Origin: Lysobacterales bacterium | GTDB taxonomy: Bacteria > Patescibacteriota > Microgenomatia > Levybacterales > UBA12049 | Length of the DNA stretch: 37,915 bases | Assembly (NCBI GenBank): GCA_035536575.1 | Contig: DATLNW010000014.1 | Coordinates: 1 to 37,915, forward strand | Direction: 5' to 3' | Part shown: in pieces, positions 1,295 to 22,787 of the stretch | Numbering within the stretch: position 1 is the first letter of the stretch | Layout of the letters: every line of letters starts with the position of its first letter | Position numbers and translations under genes: made by a program | Notes under the pieces: model-generated | Database searches by the model: none | What the model saw: the letters and a program-made list of their open reading frames with translations, nothing else | What the model was told of the DNA's origin: nothing

Positions 1295-1603
1295 ATGCCA
1301 AAAGGTAGGATAAGAGTCAGATTAAAAAGCTATGATGCACGCGTCTTGGATGCGTGTTGTCAGCAGATTTTGGATTCAGTTATAAGAACCGGTGCCAAAG
1401 TTATTGGTCCAGTTCCTCTTCCGACCGACAGATCTTTATACGCCGTGAACAAATCACCTTTTGTAGATAAGAACGCAAGAGATCACTTTGAAATAAGAGT
1501 TCACAAGAGACTGATAGACATTATGTCACCAACAGACAAGACAATTGACAGTTTGACAAATTTGGCTCTACCAGCAGGAGTTGATGTAGAGTTGAAAATG
1601 TAG
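1295..1603 (+). CDS. rpsJ: 30S ribosomal protein S10
   Basis: IRVRLKSYD...HFEIRVHKRLIDI pattern typical of S10; AGGAGA 6 nt upstream. Confidence 0.97.
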   Translation: MPKGRIRVRLKSYDARVLDACCQQILDSVIRTGAKVIGPVPLPTDRSLYAVNKSPFVDKNARDHFEIRVHKRLIDIMSPTDKTIDSLTNLALPAGVDVELKM

Positions 1604-1728
1604 TTTTACATTTTAATTATAAATGCCCAAACAACAATTAAATATTAAGATGTTGGATCGATTAAAAATGCTTATGCTAAGCCACCCCGATTAGAGGGGA
1701 TCAGATCACAAATAGTGTGAAATATGAT

Positions 1729-1754
1729 GATAGCCTAAGGGCTATCTTTTTTTT
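1729..1754 (+). terminator. intrinsic terminator/attenuator hairpin between rpsJ and rplC
   Basis: GATAGCC-TAAG-GGCTATC perfect 7-bp stem followed by 8 T. Confidence 0.65.
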
Positions 1755-1771
1755 GACGAAATTTTAAAATT

Positions 1772-2731
1772 ATGATAGGTACACTAATAGGGCAAAAATT
1801 AGATCAAGCACAGGACTTTTTGCAAAATGGCAAAAGAGTTCCTGTCACAGAAATCTCAGTTACTGAGAATGTGGTGCTGCAGGTTAAGACTGCTGAGCTA
1901 GATTCTTATGCGGCCCTACAGCTTGGAGTTGGTACAAAAAAGAAACCAACCAAGGCTCTCTTGGGACATGCAAAAAAAGCCGGCGTGGGTATCGCACCTT
2001 TAAAAATAAGAGAAATTTCAGTTGAGGGTACAACTGATGAAGATATGCCTAAAGCAGGTGACTTGATCAGTGTTGATGGAGTTTTCAAACCCGGCGATTT
2101 GGTACAAGTTACCGGAATTTCAAAAGGAAAAGGATTTGCAGGAGGGGTCAAGAGACACGGCTTTAGAGGTGGTCCCAAAACTCACGGTCAATCAGACAGA
2201 CATAGAGCTCCGGGATCAATTGGTCAGGGTACAACACCGGGGAGAGTTTACAAGGGAAAAAGAATGGCTGGTAGAATGGGAACTGAGACCGTTACGGTTA
2301 AAAACCTGACAGTTGTTAATGTTGATAATGAGGCCAAATTGTTGTATGTTTCAGGACTTGTTCCGGGACACAAGAATTCCTGGGTTGTAATTACAAGAAT
2401 TGGTGAGGATAAAAAATTTGTTCCACTCCTTAGCGCTAAGGAGAAAGAAGAGACAAAAGAGCCAGAGGAGACAAAGGTGCAAGTAGCAGCGGATGTTGAT
2501 GTTTCTAAAGAGGATGCAAAGCAAGAAAAGGTTGAAGATGCTTCGGCAAGCTCAGCACAAGGAAAAGTAGAGGCCAAAATAGAGGAGCAAGCCGAAGAAG
2601 TTAAGACAGAGGAAGTTGTAGTTGAAGATTCAACGAAGAATTCTGAAGAAGAGGTAAAAGTTGAAAATAAGCCTGAAGATACACCGGTTGAAGAAGTAAA
2701 AGCTGGCGAGCCGAAGGAGGAAAATGCCTGA
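1772..2731 (+). CDS. rplC: 50S ribosomal protein L3 with about 100-aa E/K-rich C-terminal extension
   Basis: L3 core (GKGFAGGVKRHGFRGGPKTHGQSDRHRAPGSIG); acidic low-complexity tail. Confidence 0.96.
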   Translation: MIGTLIGQKLDQAQDFLQNGKRVPVTEISVTENVVLQVKTAELDSYAALQLGVGTKKKPTKALLGHAKKAGVGIAPLKIREISVEGTTDEDMPKAGDLISVDGVFKPGDLVQVTGISKGKGFAGGVKRHGFRGGPKTHGQSDRHRAPGSIGQGTTPGRVYKGKRMAGRMGTETVTVKNLTVVNVDNEAKLLYVSGLVPGHKNSWVVITRIGEDKKFVPLLSAKEKEETKEPEETKVQVAADVDVSKEDAKQEKVEDASASSAQGKVEAKIEEQAEEVKTEEVVVEDSTKNSEEEVKVENKPEDTPVEEVKAGEPKEENA

Positions 2732-3527
2732 AGTTAAATCAAAGATCAAAAATCAAAGATCAAAAATAATTAAAAAACCAGTTGTTAAGAAAGCCGTAGC
2801 GCTCAAGGTTTCTAAAGCTGTTGTTAAAAAAGAAGTTGCAGTAAAAGCTGTAAAACCTGTTTCGGCATCTGCCAAAACACAAACAGCGAATCTATCAATT
2901 AGCGTTTATGATCTTGCGGGAAAAGTAACAGGAAAAGTGTCCTTAAGTTCAGTAATTTTCGGTGAGCCGGTCAACAAAAAGCTTCTCGCACAAGCTGTAA
3001 GAGTTTATCAGGCAAATAAAAGACAAGGTAATGCATCAACCAAGACAAGAGGTGAAGTTGACGGATCAACGCGTAAAATCTATAGACAAAAAGGAACAGG
3101 AAATGCCAGACATGGTTCAATACGTGCTCCTATTTTTGTAAAAGGAGGAATAGTTCATGGACCACGCCCTCGCGATTTTAACCTGGAACTTCCTAAAAAG
3201 ATGAGAAGAAAAGCATTATTTTCAGCACTTTCAGGAAAATTTGCCGATGGTGAAATAAAAGTATTATCAGGATTTGAAAAAATTGATGCAAAGACAAAAA
3301 GCTTTGCAGCAGTTCTTAAAAACTTAACGCTGGAGAGTAAGAAAAATCAATTACTGTTGGTAACACCGGACAATTTTGAAAGTGTTAAAAGAGGTTCAAA
3401 AAATATTCAAGGCGTAAGTAACACTTCAGCAAATAGACTTAATGCGCTTGAGGTATTGAGAAATAAAAATCTTTTAATCGCAAAAGAGTCACTTGCTGAG
3501 ATGGAAAAACTTTTTTTAAGTAAATAA
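2724..3527 (+). CDS. rplD: 50S ribosomal protein L4 with K-rich N-terminal extension
   Basis: L4 core (TKTRGEVDGSTRKIYRQKGTGNARHGS); AGGAGG upstream; 8-nt overlap with rplC. Confidence 0.96.
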   Translation: MPEVKSKIKNQRSKIIKKPVVKKAVALKVSKAVVKKEVAVKAVKPVSASAKTQTANLSISVYDLAGKVTGKVSLSSVIFGEPVNKKLLAQAVRVYQANKRQGNASTKTRGEVDGSTRKIYRQKGTGNARHGSIRAPIFVKGGIVHGPRPRDFNLELPKKMRRKALFSALSGKFADGEIKVLSGFEKIDAKTKSFAAVLKNLTLESKKNQLLLVTPDNFESVKRGSKNIQGVSNTSANRLNALEVLRNKNLLIAKESLAEMEKLFLSK

Positions 3528-3528
3528 T

Positions 3529-3846
3529 ATGAATCACAACGTAATAATAAAACCAATAGTTACTGAAAAATCAATGCAGGGAAACTTGGGAAAGTACACT
3601 TTTCTGGTTGCAGGATCAGCTACAAAAGCTGAAATTAGAAATGCTTTCAAAACGTCTTTTTCTGTAAATATCGTTTCTATCTCAACTAGCAAGATAAAAG
3701 GTAAAAGAAAAAGGATAGGGGCAAGACGGGTTGAAGTCAATGAAACAGCCACAAAAAAGGCAACAATTCTTTTGAAAAAAGGCGAAAAGCTTTCAATTTT
3801 TGAATCAGGAGAAGACAAAAAAGAGAATAAAAAGAAGTCCCGCTGA
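3529..3846 (+). CDS. rplW: 50S ribosomal protein L23
   Basis: position in operon; IIKPIVTEKS start typical of L23. Confidence 0.95.
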   Translation: MNHNVIIKPIVTEKSMQGNLGKYTFLVAGSATKAEIRNAFKTSFSVNIVSISTSKIKGKRKRIGARRVEVNETATKKATILLKKGEKLSIFESGEDKKENKKKSR

Positions 3847-3940
3847 TAGTGCCGATGATAGTTTTCATACGGCATCCTCGATGGCTTTCGGCCATCGGGA
3901 TTTTCAGTCGGGATCCCGATGGAAAATACCATCGGGAAAA
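3847..3940. repeat. cluster of consecutive short hairpins (CGATGG/CCATCG units), family G
   Basis: CGATGGC-TTTCG-GCCATCG; TCGGGATCCCGA palindrome; CCCGATGG-AAAATA-CCATCGGG. Confidence 0.8.
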
Positions 3941-4707
3941 AAGATAAAATTATGAAGAGTTTAAAAACAATAAAAAAGAAACATTCAGGACGTGATGCAT
4001 CAGGACAGGTTGTTGTCAGACATCAGGGTGGAGCGCACAAGAGATTTCTGAGAAGCATTGATTTCAAAAGAGATAAATTTGGAATTAAGGGAAAGGTTGA
4101 AGCAATAGAATATGATCCGAACAGAACATGTGATATTGCCTTGGTTCATTATACCGACGGGGAGAAGCGATATATTTTGAGTCCCGTTGGACTTAAGATT
4201 AATGCTATAATAGCATCCGGTAAAAACGCTGAAGTTTCTTTGGGTAATTCGCTGACTCTTTCTGAGATGCCCGTTGGATCGATTGTCCACAATATAGAAA
4301 TAACACCTGGAAAGGGCGGACAGATCGCAAGAGGGGCAGGAACTGGGGCAATAGTAACAGCTAAAGAAGGAGATTTTGCTCATCTCAAGCTTCCATCAGG
4401 TGAAATGCGCAAATTCCGACTGGACGCTCAGGCAACAATTGGGCAACTGGGAAATGTTGACTGGAAGAATGAAGTTATTGGAAAAGCAGGCAGAGCCCGC
4501 AATATGGGTAGACGGCCAACTGTTCGGGGAGTTGCTCAGAACCCACGATCTCACCCGCACGGAGGAGGAGAAGGACGATCTGGAATTGGCATGCCGGGTC
4601 CAAAAACATATGCAGGTAGGTCGGCTGTTGGGAACACACGTAAAAAGAAAAAGTATTCAGATAAATATATTCTAAAGCGCAGAAAGACTAAGAGAGGACA
4701 GAAATAA
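3919..4707 (+). CDS. rplB: 50S ribosomal protein L2 (start may be ATG 3952; N-terminus short)
   Basis: RHQGGAHKR, GNxxxLxxxPxGxxVHNIE and [11 protein letters not shown] motifs; ATG 3919 lies inside a hairpin. Confidence 0.95.
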
Positions 4708-5058: not shown

Positions 5059-5499
5059 ATGCAAGTTCGAGCAGTAGCAAAATCAGTAAGAATGAGTCCA
5101 AGAAAAATCCGACTAGTCGCGGACGCAGTCCGCGAGCTTTCAATTGAGGATGCGTTCTTGGTACTTGCGGCAACGCCAAACCGGGCAGCAGGACCGATTG
5201 TTAAGACCCTTGAGTCAGCAGTTGCAAATGCGGTGACCAACAATAACCTGGAAAAACAGAATTTGGTAATTGACAGCATCATGGTAAATGAGGGGCAAGC
5301 AATGAAAAGATTTCATCCATCATCCCGTGGTCGGGTGCATCCTTACAAAAAAAGAAGTAGTCACATTACAATCGTTTTGAGCGAAAAAGCTGTCAAGAAG
5401 GCAATCGTCGCAAGAGTTGATGACAAAAAAGCAGAAAAAGAGGATAAGAAGGAAACAGCTTTTATTAAAAAATCAGCAGCTAAAGGAGGTAAAAAATAA
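5059..5499 (+). CDS. rplV: 50S ribosomal protein L22 with K-rich tail
   Basis: RMSPRKIRLVADAVR motif; operon position. Confidence 0.96.
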   Translation: MQVRAVAKSVRMSPRKIRLVADAVRELSIEDAFLVLAATPNRAAGPIVKTLESAVANAVTNNNLEKQNLVIDSIMVNEGQAMKRFHPSSRGRVHPYKKRSSHITIVLSEKAVKKAIVARVDDKKAEKEDKKETAFIKKSAAKGGKK

Positions 5500-6564: not shown

Positions 6565-6951
6565 ATGAAAAATAATATTAAAAAAGAATTACATAATAAA
6601 TCTATATTAGAGCTTAGAGCGCAGTTAAAAGAAGCAAAAGAGGCAAAACGCGTATTGAATCTTGATCATCAGATGGGAAAGCTCAAGAATACCAGCGCGA
6701 TTAATCTAAAAAGAGTCGAGATTGCGGTAATGAGTACGATTATTAATGAAAAATTAGCTGAGGAGAAGCTTGAGCAAGTAGTAAAAGCAGATGATGCTTC
6801 GGCAGGCTCAGGACAAGCAAGCTCAGCACAAGGCAAGAAAGAAGTTTTGACAAAAGAAAAATCAGCGTCAAAAAAGACCGCCTCCGTTCCCGCCAACGCT
6901 AAAGCTGCGGCGGACAAGAAAACTTCGGCGGTCAAAGGAGGTAAAAAATGA
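6565..6951 (+). CDS. rpmC: 50S ribosomal protein L29 with about 60-aa C-terminal extension
   Basis: operon position; ELRAQLKEAKEA helix typical of L29; A/K-rich tail. Confidence 0.9.
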   Translation: MKNNIKKELHNKSILELRAQLKEAKEAKRVLNLDHQMGKLKNTSAINLKRVEIAVMSTIINEKLAEEKLEQVVKADDASAGSGQASSAQGKKEVLTKEKSASKKTASVPANAKAAADKKTSAVKGGKK

Positions 6952-14785: not shown

Positions 14786-14812
14786 TAAATCTGAAATAAT
14801 CCTCCATGCATT

Positions 14813-14839
14813 TTGCCGAATGAGGGCTTCTGCTATAAT
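14813..14839 (+). promoter_or_regulatory. promoter of the HD gene (extended -10)
   Basis: TTGCCG-15 nt-TGCTATAAT; ATG 6 nt downstream. Confidence 0.5.
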
Positions 14840-14845
14840 TTTCTC

Positions 14846-15358
14846 ATGGATGACAATATAAGACAAATTCTTAAAGAAAAATTGCATGGAGCTCATGATT
14901 ATTCCCACATTGAACGAATTTTAAAATATGGGCAAAAGATCAATGCAGTCCACAAAGGGAATTGGAAAATTATTGAAGCAGCATTACTTCTTCATGAGAT
15001 AACAAAAAATGATTTATCAAGTATTAAAGAATACTTATCGGATTTTACAGATGAAGAAATTGCAGAAGTAACATATTGCATAGCCAGACATTATGATTTC
15101 GTAGATAAACCTACTAGCTTGGAGGGTAAGATTGTCCAAGACTGTGATATTTTAGACATGCTGGGAGCAGTTGGGATAGCAAGAGGTTTTGTTGCATCTG
15201 GCGAGAAGGGTTTGAATTTAGTAGAAGCAAAAGATGAGTATAAAAAGAAAAGATTAATGGTGATTGATCAATTGAATTTAGATGAATCTAAAAAGATGGC
15301 AGAAGATAAGTCAAAATTTACAATATTATTCTTCGATACTATAGAAGGAGAAATATAA
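14846..15358 (+). CDS. HD-domain phosphohydrolase
   Basis: H..HD (GAHDYSH), LLHEI, ARHYD, DCDILD motifs. Confidence 0.8.
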   Translation: MDDNIRQILKEKLHGAHDYSHIERILKYGQKINAVHKGNWKIIEAALLLHEITKNDLSSIKEYLSDFTDEEIAEVTYCIARHYDFVDKPTSLEGKIVQDCDILDMLGAVGIARGFVASGEKGLNLVEAKDEYKKKRLMVIDQLNLDESKKMAEDKSKFTILFFDTIEGEI

Positions 15359-15389
15359 TTATTACCTAAGGAGCTGTATCGATGCTTTA

Positions 15390-15427
15390 TTTTCCTCTTT
15401 GTAATTTTGAGCCTGGGGTGGTAGAAT
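15390..15427 (+). repeat. direct repeat copy 1 flanking hicBA (contains the promoter)
   Basis: TTTTCCTCTTTGTAATTTTGAGCCTGG..; TTGTAA-17-TAGAAT, hicB ATG 9 nt downstream. Confidence 0.85.
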
Positions 15428-15436
15428 AAATTTAAC

Positions 15437-15763
15437 ATGAAAGCACAAAAATTTCCATTTCGATGTATTGTCTATCAGGAAAAAGACGATTCATTTACCG
15501 GAATATGTCTTGATCTGGATATTGTCGAGGAGGGGCACGCAAGTCTTCAGGAAGCGATTCTTAGTATTCATGACGCGATTGAATCACACATTCAAGCTGC
15601 CGCAAAATTGGGATATCCTAAAGAGCTCATGTCCCGTCCCGCGCCAAAAGAATATTGGGACAGGCTTGATGCGCTTGTTCATGCAAAACCTCAGAAATTA
15701 GACTCTTTGCCTTTTCAGTTTTTCACCACTAGTTCATATCCATCTTCCCCAAGCTATGTCTAA
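15437..15763 (+). CDS. hicB: HicB-family antitoxin
   Basis: N-terminal HicB-like fold signature (F..IVYQEKDDSFTGICLDLD..EGHASLQEA); 8-nt overlap with hicA. Confidence 0.75.
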   Translation: MKAQKFPFRCIVYQEKDDSFTGICLDLDIVEEGHASLQEAILSIHDAIESHIQAAAKLGYPKELMSRPAPKEYWDRLDALVHAKPQKLDSLPFQFFTTSSYPSSPSYV

Positions 15764-16001
15764 ATACAGACCTCTAAAGTACCGCGAAGTTGTAAAAATT
15801 CTCAACAACCTTGGTTTTAAAGCAGAACCTGGAAGAGGCACTTCGCATCAGACATGGACTTTGAATAGAAACGGTAAGAATTTAGCTGTAACGATATTTT
15901 TTCACGGATCAAACCTTGAATTCAGGCCTGGAACACTAAATTCCATTATAAGGCAGTCCGGATTTTCAAAAGACGAATTCTATAAAGCTTTGAAGAAGTA
16001 G
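15756..16001 (+). CDS. hicA: HicA-family mRNA interferase toxin
   Basis: YREVVKILNNLGF...GTSHQTW...H....L.PGTLNSIIRQSG pattern. Confidence 0.8.
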   Translation: MSKYRPLKYREVVKILNNLGFKAEPGRGTSHQTWTLNRNGKNLAVTIFFHGSNLEFRPGTLNSIIRQSGFSKDEFYKALKK

Positions 16002-16009
16002 CTTAGTTG

Positions 16010-16047
16010 TTTTCCTCTTTGTAATTTTGAGCCTGGTTTGCTATAAT
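16010..16047 (+). repeat. direct repeat copy 2 (infA promoter)
   Basis: same 27-nt core as 15390-15416; TTGTAA-17-TATAAT, infA ATG 6 nt downstream. Confidence 0.85.
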
Positions 16048-16053
16048 GTCTGA

Positions 16054-20306: not shown

Positions 20307-20795
20307 ATGGCAGACGAAGTACAACAACCAAAGATAAATAAACAAAGTAAATCTCAAAAACGAGACTATGTTTCAGCCGTTGGAAGACGCAAGGAAGCGG
20401 TTGCGCGTGTCCGGATTTATGAACACGTAAAGGCTGATGCAAAATGGGCTCAGGAGCCTATAAAAAAGGGAGAGATTCTGGTCAATGAGAAGCCAATTGC
20501 CGCTTATTTTCCAAGTGAGATTGAAAGGAAGCTTTATACAGAGCCACTCAGGCTTACAAATACCCACCAAAATAATTATGCAATCACCATTCGGGTAACC
20601 GGTGGAGGACACTCAGGACAGCTGGACGCGACAATTGCAGCCATTGCAAATGCGTTAAATAAGCTGGACCGTGAGAAGCACCGCCCGATCCTTAAGAAAA
20701 AAGGCTTATTGACCCGCGACTCACGTATCAGACAGAGAAGAAAAGTAGGAATGGGTGGAAAATCCAGAAGAAAGCTCCAATCCCCAAAGAGATAG
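20307..20795 (+). CDS. rpsI: 30S ribosomal protein S9 (N-terminal extension)
   Basis: GRRKEAVARVRI, GGGHSGQLDA, C-terminal RRKLQSPKR. Confidence 0.96.
   Translation: MADEVQQPKINKQSKSQKRDYVSAVGRRKEAVARVRIYEHVKADAKWAQEPIKKGEILVNEKPIAAYFPSEIERKLYTEPLRLTNTHQNNYAITIRVTGGGHSGQLDATIAAIANALNKLDREKHRPILKKKGLLTRDSRIRQRRKVGMGGKSRRKLQSPKR
20766..20792 (+). repeat. direct repeat copy 1: last 9 codons of rpsI
   Basis: AGA AGA AAG CTC CAA TCC CCA AAG AGA (RRKLQSPKR). Confidence 0.85.
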
Positions 20796-20816
20796 GATTA
20801 ACAGTTAGTTATTTGG

Positions 20817-21086
20817 CTACTTATATAACTCATTGTGGGTTCCCAGTTTTAGGAAGTAGGCAACTGTTTTGCTTTCTTCAGTTATTTCTTTGTAAATTGC
20901 TCTCACGTCAGCAGTTATATCAATACTTTTTAGGCCTTCGTATTCGCGCTTAAGGTCATGGTTATTGAGTGAGGGTTCAAAAGGATTTTCTCCAAACAGT
21001 TTTATTTTTTGTCTAAAGTTTTTGCGGATTATTACATGAGCTTGCTTTAGTTTTTTAATAAAACCAGGGCTATATTTTGTTTTCAT
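20817..21086 (-). CDS. RelE/ParE-superfamily toxin
   Basis: 89 aa; HDLKREYEGLKSIDI..DVRAIY...GTHNELY pattern; ATGA overlap with the upstream antitoxin. Confidence 0.75.
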   Translation of the reverse strand: MKTKYSPGFIKKLKQAHVIIRKNFRQKIKLFGENPFEPSLNNHDLKREYEGLKSIDITADVRAIYKEITEESKTVAYFLKLGTHNELYK

Positions 21087-21358
21087 ACTCCCTGTTTCTC
21101 AAGCCACGCGATTGCATCTTCAGCATTGTCAAAAGTGGGAGATGCTTTCCCCAGTTTATAATCATTCATTGCCTTTTTTATATCCAAGAGAGTTTTTTTA
21201 TTAAGTTTTTCATCAGGGTGAAAAGTGATTTGCTTTGTTTTGATGATCTGTTTGAAATATGAGTCAACGATCGCGCTAAGACTTAAGCCGAACTTTTCCG
21301 CAATAAGTTGGACTTTTTCTTTTAGCTCAGATTGGACTTTTATGGAAGTGCTACTCAT
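21083..21358 (-). CDS. RHH/RelB-DinJ-like antitoxin (start ATG 21358 preferred over the TTG at 21394)
   Basis: SIKVQSELKEKVQLIAEKFGLSLSAIV ribbon-helix-helix-like N-terminus; paired with the toxin. Confidence 0.7.
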   Translation of the reverse strand: MSSTSIKVQSELKEKVQLIAEKFGLSLSAIVDSYFKQIIKTKQITFHPDEKLNKKTLLDIKKAMNDYKLGKASPTFDNAEDAIAWLEKQGV

Positions 21359-21365
21359 TAATATG

Positions 21366-21394
21366 ATTATATAAGCAACCTGAGATTCCGTCAA
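21366..21394 (-). promoter_or_regulatory. near-consensus promoter of the TA operon
   Basis: TTGACG-17 nt-TATAAT, then 7 nt to ATG 21358. Confidence 0.65.
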
Positions 21395-21418
21395 GGTTTC
21401 GTGTTGATTTTTTCATTG

Positions 21419-21445
21419 CGCAGAAAACTCCAGTCACCAAAGAGA
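21419..21445 (+). repeat. direct repeat copy 2: relic of an rpsI 3' end
   Basis: CGC AGA AAA CTC CAG TCA CCA AAG AGA also reads RRKLQSPKR; 22/27 nt identical and all differences synonymous. Confidence 0.8.
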
Positions 21446-21452
21446 GAAAGAA

Positions 21453-22787
21453 TTATCTTTTGCCTGACGCCATCATTTGAGTTCCCCCAACCAACGCAGC
21501 AGCAGGTATTGCCAGAGCACCTATTAAGATTGCCAGTAAGATACCTCCGGTTATTTTCCCGCCGCTTTTCATCTTATCCCATGCAGCCCTATGCCCAGGG
21601 GGAATATTTTTATCCAAAATAGAGATCAGTTTGTCCTGGTCCATATTTGGGCCAAGAATCTTGTCTATATTTTCCATTTTTGCAAATTTGGCGGTAAGTA
21701 CGTCATTACCTAGAATCGCACCCAACCCTTGTTCTTGAAGAGATTTGAATTCTTCAATAGTAACTCCAGCTGCTGCAAGTTGCGGCTTCAGGCTTTCAAT
21801 CTCAGTATTAGCTGCTTCAGTTAGTTGGCCAATTAGCTCAGCTAATCCTTCCACGTTGTGTGCTTCTAAGCTTCTCAGAGCTGAAGCAGTAGCCCAATTG
21901 CCAATTTCGCCTCCAGCAAGTCCCTGGGCAATACGTAGCTGCGCAAGCAACAGCTTAGTTTCGGCTGGAGCTTTATCGCCATGTTCGTTTATTTCAAACT
22001 GCAATCTTACAGCATGTTCTTCAAGTACCCTCGCGGCTATATTTCTGGGATCTTTATCCCGCGCTTCATCTTGGTCTATCTTTGCATTTAAAGCTGTTAT
22101 TTCACCAGCTGATAGAGGTGGTGCTTCGTTCGCGCCTTGTGCGCTCCAGGCAATAAGCCTGCTTTCCGGTGTGTCTTTACCATCTGCTTTGAATAAGCCA
22201 GCAATCTCCTCTGCATGGGTGGAAAGTTGTGCATTAGCAAGAACTTCTCCGGAAAGCGAATCAATTGTTACATCCTCTGGGGGATCATCTATAGTTTTAC
22301 CCTCGGCTTTAAAGTTCACACCGGTAGTATCAGCATCTGTAGGCTTGCTTAGCGAGTCTATTCTTACTATTTTTCCATCGGGTCTTGTGATTTCCAAACC
22401 TCCTTCAACAGGTATTTTCCCTCCAAAGCCCGCATATGTTTCAGGGGGAAAGCCATGCCTGTAGTTATTTTCAAGTAGGAGCTGGGCTTCGCTTCTGGAT
22501 GGAGCTTTACCTCCTCTGACCTCTCTAGTTATTTCAGTAAATCTTCTGTCTATTGACCTTCGTGCAAGACCTCTTGCACTCTCGGAAAATTCAGCATTTT
22601 CTCTAGCTTTGGCATCTTCGCCTGATCCAGCGTCTGTATCATCCCCATCTTTATCTTCGGGTTCATCAGGTCCAGGTTTAGACTCTGCTGATGGAGGTTG
22701 GGGTCCGGTATCGTCGGGTCCGGATCTTGCATTATGAGCCTCTGCGGCTGCAATCTCTTCAGCTGGTGCTGAAATTTCATCGCTCAT
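21453..22787 (-). CDS. hypothetical protein, acidic/Pro-rich N-terminus, single C-terminal TM (tail-anchor-like)
   Basis: long ORF; C-terminal GGILLAILIGALAIPAAALVGG; ATG 22787 preferred over the TTG at 22796. Confidence 0.8.
   Translation of the reverse strand: MSDEISAPAEEIAAAEAHNARSGPDDTGPQPPSAESKPGPDEPEDKDGDDTDAGSGEDAKARENAEFSESARGLARRSIDRRFTEITREVRGGKAPSRSEAQLLLENNYRHGFPPETYAGFGGKIPVEGGLEITRPDGKIVRIDSLSKPTDADTTGVNFKAEGKTIDDPPEDVTIDSLSGEVLANAQLSTHAEEIAGLFKADGKDTPESRLIAWSAQGANEAPPLSAGEITALNAKIDQDEARDKDPRNIAARVLEEHAVRLQFEINEHGDKAPAETKLLLAQLRIAQGLAGGEIGNWATASALRSLEAHNVEGLAELIGQLTEAANTEIESLKPQLAAAGVTIEEFKSLQEQGLGAILGNDVLTAKFAKMENIDKILGPNMDQDKLISILDKNIPPGHRAAWDKMKSGGKITGGILLAILIGALAIPAAALVGGTQMMASGKR

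Follow-up and report, generated by a model that had tools for sequence, protein, structure and literature searches.

The window analysed here is a 37,915-nt stretch of DNA that makes up contig C14 of a 0.93-Mb, 80%-complete genome (G000) of the Candidate Phyla Radiation (CPR; Patescibacteria) type. Genomes of this type are tiny and contain few recognisable mobile elements, and the route by which they gain genes is poorly understood. In the window, rpsI, which encodes ribosomal protein S9, is followed by a toxin-antitoxin operon, a repeat of the nine codons that end rpsI, and a convergent gene for a 447-aa protein (Table 1). The upstream tail copy, which is the end of the working gene, is hereafter called DR1 and the downstream tail copy DR2. 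For comparison, we used an order-wide survey set of 245 genomes (G numbers denote genomes and L numbers denote loci, including those on metagenome contigs).

DR1 and DR2 lie in the same orientation and agree at 22 of 27 nt, and both encode RRKLQSPKR (9/9 aa identity). The nucleotide differences fall in four codons (DR1/DR2: AGA/CGC, AAG/AAA, CAA/CAG, and TCC/TCA), all of them synonymous, and the similarity ends abruptly at either side. A preliminary description of this DNA had reported that the last nine rpsI codons recur with synonymous changes only, and its coordinates and letters agree with ours. Three empirical controls were applied to this repeat. In the whole window (37.9 kb, both strands), the runner-up match to the DR1 27-mer was 18/27. 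At the rpsI loci of 29 relatives, the best match of the gene's own tail was 13–17/27 within 1.5 kb downstream and at most 19/27 in any flank. We also asked, for each of the 186 open frames in the window that reach 60 aa or more, whether the last nine residues recur at 9/9 within 3 kb downstream; this was so for rpsI alone, and reversed-tail controls over the open frames of the window gave 0 matches. The repeat is thus confirmed as real and far beyond chance.

The position of DR2 relates it to the native end of rpsI. Its last codon reads on as AGA-GAAAGAA-TTA, and the convergent 447-aa gene has its stop at this TTA. DR2 ends 7 nt before that stop, where the end of the ancestral rpsI must have lain. 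At the matching site, G002 has AGA-TAA-GAAAGA, which suggests that DR2 lost its stop codon by a T-to-G change or by a 3-nt deletion; we read this loss as decay following stranding. Empty sites were found in two relatives. In G003, a member of the same genus, only 2 nt separate the rpsI stop from that of a convergent 448-aa gene, which occupies the position of the 447-aa gene and resembles it weakly (E-value 0.018–0.08). In metagenome contig L097, whose S9 is 83% identical, the 447-aa gene has a clear homolog (32% identity over 344 aa, E-value 2e-29), which ends ~45 nt past rpsI. Neither the cassette nor a second tail is present at rpsI of G003 or L097. Since rpsI and the convergent gene stand tail to tail in both, with a single S9 tail, the cassette is an insertion. 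This comparison of the rpsI downstream region bears out the earlier proposal that the cassette integrated into the rpsI 3' end, and neither relative keeps a second copy as part of some other feature.

The inserted segment is distinct in composition, with a GC content of 34.8% (rpsI: 44.8%; 447-aa gene: 46.0%) that places it in the lowest 4% of 623-nt windows. The predicted toxin gives full-length profile matches to Pfam YafQ_toxin (E-value 1.7e-6, 28.7 bits; cut-off 30), RelE_StbE (E-value 1.3e-5, 25.6 bits; cut-off 27.9), and NCBIfam TIGR00053 (E-value 5e-8, 33.5 bits; cut-off 87.25), and its nearest solved structures in PDB are the Helicobacter pylori HP0892/HP0894 toxins (E-value 0.01–0.05). 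The predicted antitoxin scores above the Pfam RelB cut-off (27.3 bits; cut-off 22.4) and also matches NCBIfam RelB_DinJ (E-value 1.4e-8), under that model's own cut-off. By family resemblance, the pair appears to be a type II system with a RelE/YafQ-like toxin and a RelB antitoxin. The antitoxin gene precedes the toxin gene, with a 4-nt overlap between the stop of the former and the start of the latter, an arrangement of translational coupling under an own promoter. The TTG at 21394, which starts the longer listed antitoxin reading frame, falls on the −35 box. Between the end of the −10 box and the antitoxin ATG (window 21358–21371, minus strand) lie 7 nt, in which no Shine-Dalgarno sequence fits; from this spacing, the cassette mRNA is probably leaderless, a feature that the preliminary description had noted for other genes of this DNA. 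The content of the segment had been described earlier as only a convergent toxin and antitoxin with a near-consensus promoter. Only these three features are indeed present (the promoter matching at 11 of 12 positions), whereas the two genes are co-directional and are convergent only relative to rpsI.

Table 1 Features of the window and copies of the dispersed hairpin element.
Feature	Coordinates or loci	Strand	Evidence or remark
rpsI (ribosomal protein S9), intact, 162 aa, ends GGKS RRKLQSPKR-TAG	20307..20795	+	Pfam Ribosomal_S9 E-value 3.2e-32, full length
DR1, last nine codons of working rpsI, AGAAGAAAGCTCCAATCCCCAAAGAGA	20766..20792	+	sequence read
Inserted segment, 623 bp, toxin-antitoxin operon and promoter; repeat unit 653 bp	20796..21418		absent from G003 and L097 site
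Putative toxin gene, 89 aa, YafQ/RelE-type mRNA interferase-like	20817..21086	-	full-length profile matches below curated cut-offs
Putative antitoxin gene, 91 aa from ATG 21358, RelB/DinJ family (ribbon-helix-helix)	21083..21358	-	Pfam RelB
Predicted cassette promoter, TTGACG, 17-nt spacer, TATAAT	21366..21394	-	consensus scan, 11/12 positions
DR2, stranded S9 tail at ancestral position, no stop codon, CGCAGAAAACTCCAGTCACCAAAGAGA	21419..21445	+	sequence read
Convergent 447-aa gene, native downstream neighbour of rpsI, C-terminal hydrophobic segment	21453..22796	-	homolog in L097; no Pfam family
Upstream 27-nt repeat bracketing hicBA	15390..15416	+	sequence read
hicB (15437-15763) and hicA (15756-16001)	15437..16001	+	HicA_toxin Pfam E-value 1.1e-11; hicB named from position, no family match
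Downstream 27-nt repeat, part of infA promoter	16010..16036	+	sequence read
Hairpin copies in G000	C82:22945-23032(-), C102:2119-2206(+), C44:3706-3788(-), C66:24775-24853(-), C82:9333-9410(-), C71:3522-3602(+), C16:6694-6769(+)		
Hairpin loci	L036-L041, L113, L130, L172, L153		

Homologs of the cassette (65–70% nucleotide identity) occur at unrelated loci in ~19 of the 245 genomes, and this patchy spread is the pattern of a mobile toxin-antitoxin module. At one such locus (L082; G202:C61, reverse orientation, ~560–1700), the homolog lies directly after the 3' end (CCA) of an apparent tRNA gene, called by eye, at a site downstream of rpmG, with no obvious duplicated tRNA end on the far side.

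The pattern of differences between DR1 and DR2 bears on the origin of the two spellings. Synonymous changes make up 22–23% of all single changes in the tail, so that duplication in place followed by drift would yield an all-synonymous result with p ~0.008–0.02. An untranslated copy would gather mostly non-synonymous changes, and duplication in place with drift consequently fits poorly. Both spellings are close to real S9 ends. S9 in L099 ends in CGCAGAAAACTCCAATCACCAAAGCGC, which matches DR2 at 24/27; the S9 end in L098 matches DR1 at 24/27. Compared with the tails of other relatives, DR1 matches at 22/27 (G003), 26/27 (G002), 22/27 (G004), and 24/27 (L097), and DR2 at 21/27 (G003), 23/27 (G002), and 23/27 (G004). 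Most likely, both tails evolved as working S9 ends and one of them came from another lineage, so the earlier suggestion of a different lineage stands as the best reading of these sequences. Template and variable repeats of the diversity-generating retroelement type were considered and rejected, because the tail differences, read from the sequences, are not adenine-specific.

To survey S9 tails, a back-translated S9-tail pattern was run on the 245 genomes together with control patterns. The pattern occurred twice on one contig in 8 of these genomes, compared to 2 control matches in all. Further second matches in G143, G165, G166, G177, and G034 were discarded as contig-end fragments or weak chance matches. 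The most elaborate case is G038 (L032, G038:C5:44000-51485, positions 1435–4413), with three S9 tails in a row: rpsI is followed by a hairpin element with an extra stem, a tail reading RRKKQSLKR-stop, ~1.9 kb of other sequence, and an 18-codon tail that abuts recX. This last tail differs from the working copy in 11 of 18 codons, all synonymously and including a Ser AGT/TCT change (p ~2e-5). The ~1.9 kb contain two genes without family matches and an open frame that resembles a transposase fragment (a reader's judgement, with no Pfam match). The arrangement looks like serial insertions stacked at one site. In other cases, a hairpin element of ~85 nt lies between two S9 tails (G071, G084, G135, G222, G224, G236, L113, L130, L172, and L153/154/156). 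Across the order, the rpsI tail has been used for insertion repeatedly, with differing cargo.

The hairpin cases allow the two tails to be assigned. The upstream tail has RRKK in L130 and L172, whereas the downstream tail has RRRK, as in the nearest element-free relatives (5/6 for L130, 6/6 for L172). In L113, the downstream tail matches the closest element-free relative at 26/27 and the upstream tail at 20/27. By these comparisons, the upstream, working tail is the import in the hairpin cases, with the native tail stranded downstream. The stranded tail of L153 carries a Q-to-R change and a 1-nt deletion (frameshift). Since stranded tails decay in this way, selection does not maintain them, and their coding look reflects their origin. 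The many intact tails downstream of hairpins had prompted us to consider selection for readthrough, hopping, splicing, or a mini-ORF (open reading frame). This was ruled out because there is no constant-frame spacing, an in-frame ATG is not general, the tail is frameshifted in L153/L156, and a P-to-L change is present in G038. Two metagenome loci, L117 and L119, are element-free relatives of G222 and G224, and their rpsI ends in AGGAGAAAAAGGCAATCCCCGAAAAGG. This end looks like a join of two G222 sequences, the left 22 nt of the upstream tail and the right end of the downstream tail. Such a tail is what deletion of the hairpin by recombination between the two tails would leave, an indirect hint of excision.

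The hairpin element itself is ~85 nt long, carries no gene, and is predicted to fold into a long irregular hairpin. Across 42 distinct copies, base pairing holds in 96.8% of cells (22–49% in slid controls), and compensatory change is seen in 18 of the 19 pairs. No match to Rfam was found at E-values up to 1. Seven copies occur in G000, none of them in the window, and 6–23 copies in each of five other genomes. Of 37 copies examined, 11 start a few bases from the stop of a long gene on the same strand and are followed by a synonymously different second copy of that gene's last 7–10 codons and stop; they lie at genes for S9, S7 (in two genera), L33, EF-Tu, and GyrB. One copy stands after a tRNA and is followed by a repeat of the tRNA T-arm, and another (G071:C1:51272) is flanked by a perfect 31-nt repeat whose offset differs. 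A covariance model of the hairpin (R1), run on the window with filters off, gave no match (best 11.4 bits, E-value 0.72, sited elsewhere). The cassette accordingly shares site and signature with the hairpin element and is not the element itself, and no hairpin remnant was found within the toxin-antitoxin cassette. Two further candidates were rejected. Loci with paired hairpins hold only housekeeping genes or an assembly palindrome and yielded no autonomous partner of the element, and no guide-like hairpin segment pairing with the S9 tail was seen, the variable loop differing among rpsI-linked copies. Two copies have unusual surroundings: in L048 (G000:C82:7833-10910), the motif GAGGTAGGAATCTTG occurs three times within ~250 nt round hairpin copy C82:9333-9410, and in L177 (G222:C33:1-1460), the contig opens with a ~350-bp inverted duplication, probably an assembly artefact, with a hairpin copy in each arm.

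A second toxin-antitoxin unit in the window, hicBA, is built along similar lines. Its flanking repeat is identical at 27/27 nt, with weak similarity running on into the −10 region (TAGAAT vs TATAAT). In G002, G003, and G004, map is followed directly by ttttgagcctg...tataat and infA, with neither hicBA nor an HD-domain gene. No integrase is linked to the hicBA cassette. The window thus contains two minimal toxin-antitoxin units (hicBA ~620 bp; rpsI 653 bp). Both are bracketed by a 27-nt repeat and both sites are empty in relatives, and hicBA holds up as the second cassette with a flanking duplication that had been noted before. In the window, an HD-domain-like gene (14846–15358, no Pfam match) also stands with hicBA between map and infA (14786–16053). 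Ahead of this gene there may be a third, diverged infA promoter; if so, each inserted unit would have its own promoter copy. Elsewhere in the window, two open frames end in KSAAKGGKK-stop and TSAVKGGKK-stop (5473–5499 and 6922–6951; 7/9), and these tails may relate to a string shared by several ribosomal protein genes that the preliminary description had pointed out.

We favour, with a probability of about 0.7, the explanation that a small mobile module, consisting of the YafQ/RelE–RelB operon and its promoter, recombined into the last nine codons of rpsI together with a surrogate tail from a foreign lineage. The module, or the DNA that delivered it, would have carried an S9 tail that evolved in the rpsI of a closely related lineage. 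The crossover may have fallen inside the 27-nt homology or at its edge, by a Campbell-type or att-like process. Because the cassette encodes no enzyme for this step, the enzyme may have acted in trans. After insertion, S9 would be completed by 20766–20792 and TAG, and the other tail (21419–21445) would be stranded beside the native downstream gene, no longer translated and decaying, as its lost stop suggests. The toxin-antitoxin pair may then persist because its loss would harm the cell.

Three other explanations were weighed. It is very improbable that DR2 is a chance similarity or forms part of some functional element unrelated to S9, such as the signals at the 3' end of the 447-aa gene or a 73-aa open frame at 21401–21622. 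The tail is A-rich and of low complexity and this frame formally covers DR2, but the controls top out at 17–19/27, whereas DR2 matches at 9/9 aa and in register. The three empirical controls exclude chance or low complexity as its source. The frame has no family match and lies on the opposite strand to the 447-aa gene that it overlaps, and relatives without the cassette also lack DR2, which dismisses the copy as part of a real frame or element. A more serious alternative, though still an unlikely one, is duplication in place, in which an insertion between rpsI and the convergent gene copied 27–30 nt of the recipient's own rpsI tail and the five differences arose later. An addiction-type pair of low GC content, with direct target repeats and no mobility gene, is what the class of Furuta et al. 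(2010; PMC2853133) would lead one to expect, and the 27/27 hicBA repeat looks like a fresh target duplication. The all-synonymous pattern evaluated above is poorly accommodated, and placing all five changes in the working copy has a probability of ~4e-4 (our estimate from site counts). G038 and the hairpin cases show many synonymous differences, Ser codon-family switches, and residue states of other lineages, and the 27-nt repeat falls under the 30-bp criterion of PMC2853133.

It is also rather improbable that the cassette is the relic of a larger integrative element (a prophage, an integrative and conjugative element [ICE], or an integrative and mobilizable element [IME]) that entered the rpsI 3' end with its own integrase and lost everything except the toxin-antitoxin pair, leaving a remnant bounded by attL and attR like a cis-mobilizable element (CIME). 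A toxin-antitoxin pair is expected to resist deletion, and the stacked inserts of G038, with their ~1.9 kb of cargo and transposase-fragment-like frame, fit decaying, accreted elements. Integration by tyrosine integrases at the rpsI 3' end is documented (PMC4701971). Against such an origin, the 623 bp contain no trace of other element genes or pseudogenes, two genes and a promoter fill the segment, and the hicBA unit is equally minimal (~620 bp). In the 245 genomes, no large element bounded by S9 tails was found, and no two tails are >2 kb apart on one contig.

Several observations also weigh against insertion of a small module with a surrogate tail. No integrase, transposase, or other mobility gene lies in or beside the cassette, and the genome, at 80% completeness, has a single tyrosine recombinase (Phage_integrase family), on another contig at G000:C91:8147-8620. 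The longest wholly identical block shared by DR1 and DR2 is 9 nt, fewer than a classical att core usually has; RecA recombination would need far more. The five nucleotide differences are a small sample, and comparison with relatives' tails does not separate the native from the imported copy at this locus. No flanking repeats above controls surround the homologous toxin-antitoxin cassettes in 11 other genomes; the lone exception is a 13/14 repeat in G009 with no extension.

The window offers a clean, datable case of an addiction module set into the end of an essential ribosomal gene, where a spare gene end keeps it harmless; relatives have an empty site, and a similarly built second cassette lies 5 kb off. 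Taken with the hairpin elements found at the ends of S9, S7, L33, EF-Tu, and GyrB, it suggests a general, integrase-poor capture of DNA at conserved gene ends. A tentative extension, to which we give well under even odds, is that CPR bacteria of this order have an undescribed way of moving very small, recombinase-free modules (the ~0.6-kb toxin-antitoxin cassettes and the ~85-nt gene-less hairpin element). These modules would bear surrogate gene ends of other lineages and might enter ~9–10 codons before the stops of S9, S7, L33, EF-Tu, and GyrB and beside tRNA genes; the rpsI and hicBA cassettes would then be minimal autonomous passengers and not wrecks of larger islands. If true, this capture route would explain the spread of toxin-antitoxin cassettes as independent units, and annotators would gain a simple marker of recent insertion in uncultured genomes, namely a synonymous second gene tail. 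Among the papers that we searched, we found no description of the surrogate-tail signature in CPR bacteria.

As for known systems, the cargo resembles type II YafQ/RelE–DinJ/RelB modules in having the antitoxin first, a 4-nt overlap, ~90 aa per protein, and a strong promoter of its own, and differs in that its toxin scores under the curated family cut-offs. Mobile open frames inserted in fungal mitochondrial genes (e.g., atp6) supply a new C-terminus, and the displaced original stays downstream, as at rpsI. The fungal inserts encode homing endonucleases fused in frame, whereas the rpsI cargo is a separate operon on the opposite strand. Like the rpsI unit, a CIME has no recombination gene of its own.

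The closest parallels come from two bacterial classes. In streptococci, the 3' ends of rpsI and rpmG serve as targets of ICEs that have tyrosine integrases (Ambroset et al. 2016, PMC4701971), and ICEs, IMEs, and their gene-poor derivatives (CIMEs) integrate site-specifically at rpsI, rpmG, and tRNA 3' ends (PMC4701971). The target gene and the gene end are the same as here, the insert lies between direct repeats, of which the upstream one completes the essential gene while the displaced copy sits at the far end, and inserts can be stacked (as in G038). Unlike these elements, the rpsI unit has no integrase nearby, measures 0.65 kb, carries only a toxin-antitoxin operon, has diverged repeats (22/27) with no identical core >9 nt, and sits in a CPR-type host. 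Restriction-modification modules form the other class: they insert with a long direct target duplication and without a mobility gene, mostly in naturally competent species (Nobusato et al. 2000; Furuta, Abe and Kobayashi 2010, PMC2853133). In that class, one 46-bp repeat overlaps the 3' end of a gene, and the repeats are recipient-derived and nearly identical (e.g., 44/46; PMC2853133). An addiction-type module, the lack of a linked mobility gene, repeats at a gene 3' end, and an insert GC content below that of the genome are shared features, and the hicBA unit, with its 27/27 repeat, fits this class well. The rpsI unit departs from it, as its five purely synonymous differences point to two lineages and its repeat is 27 nt instead of >30. 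The rpsI cassette thus fails one defining feature of each class, having no integrase and no near-identical repeats, and it combines the site and surrogate-tail logic of the ICE class with the minimal, recombinase-free build of the restriction-modification class.

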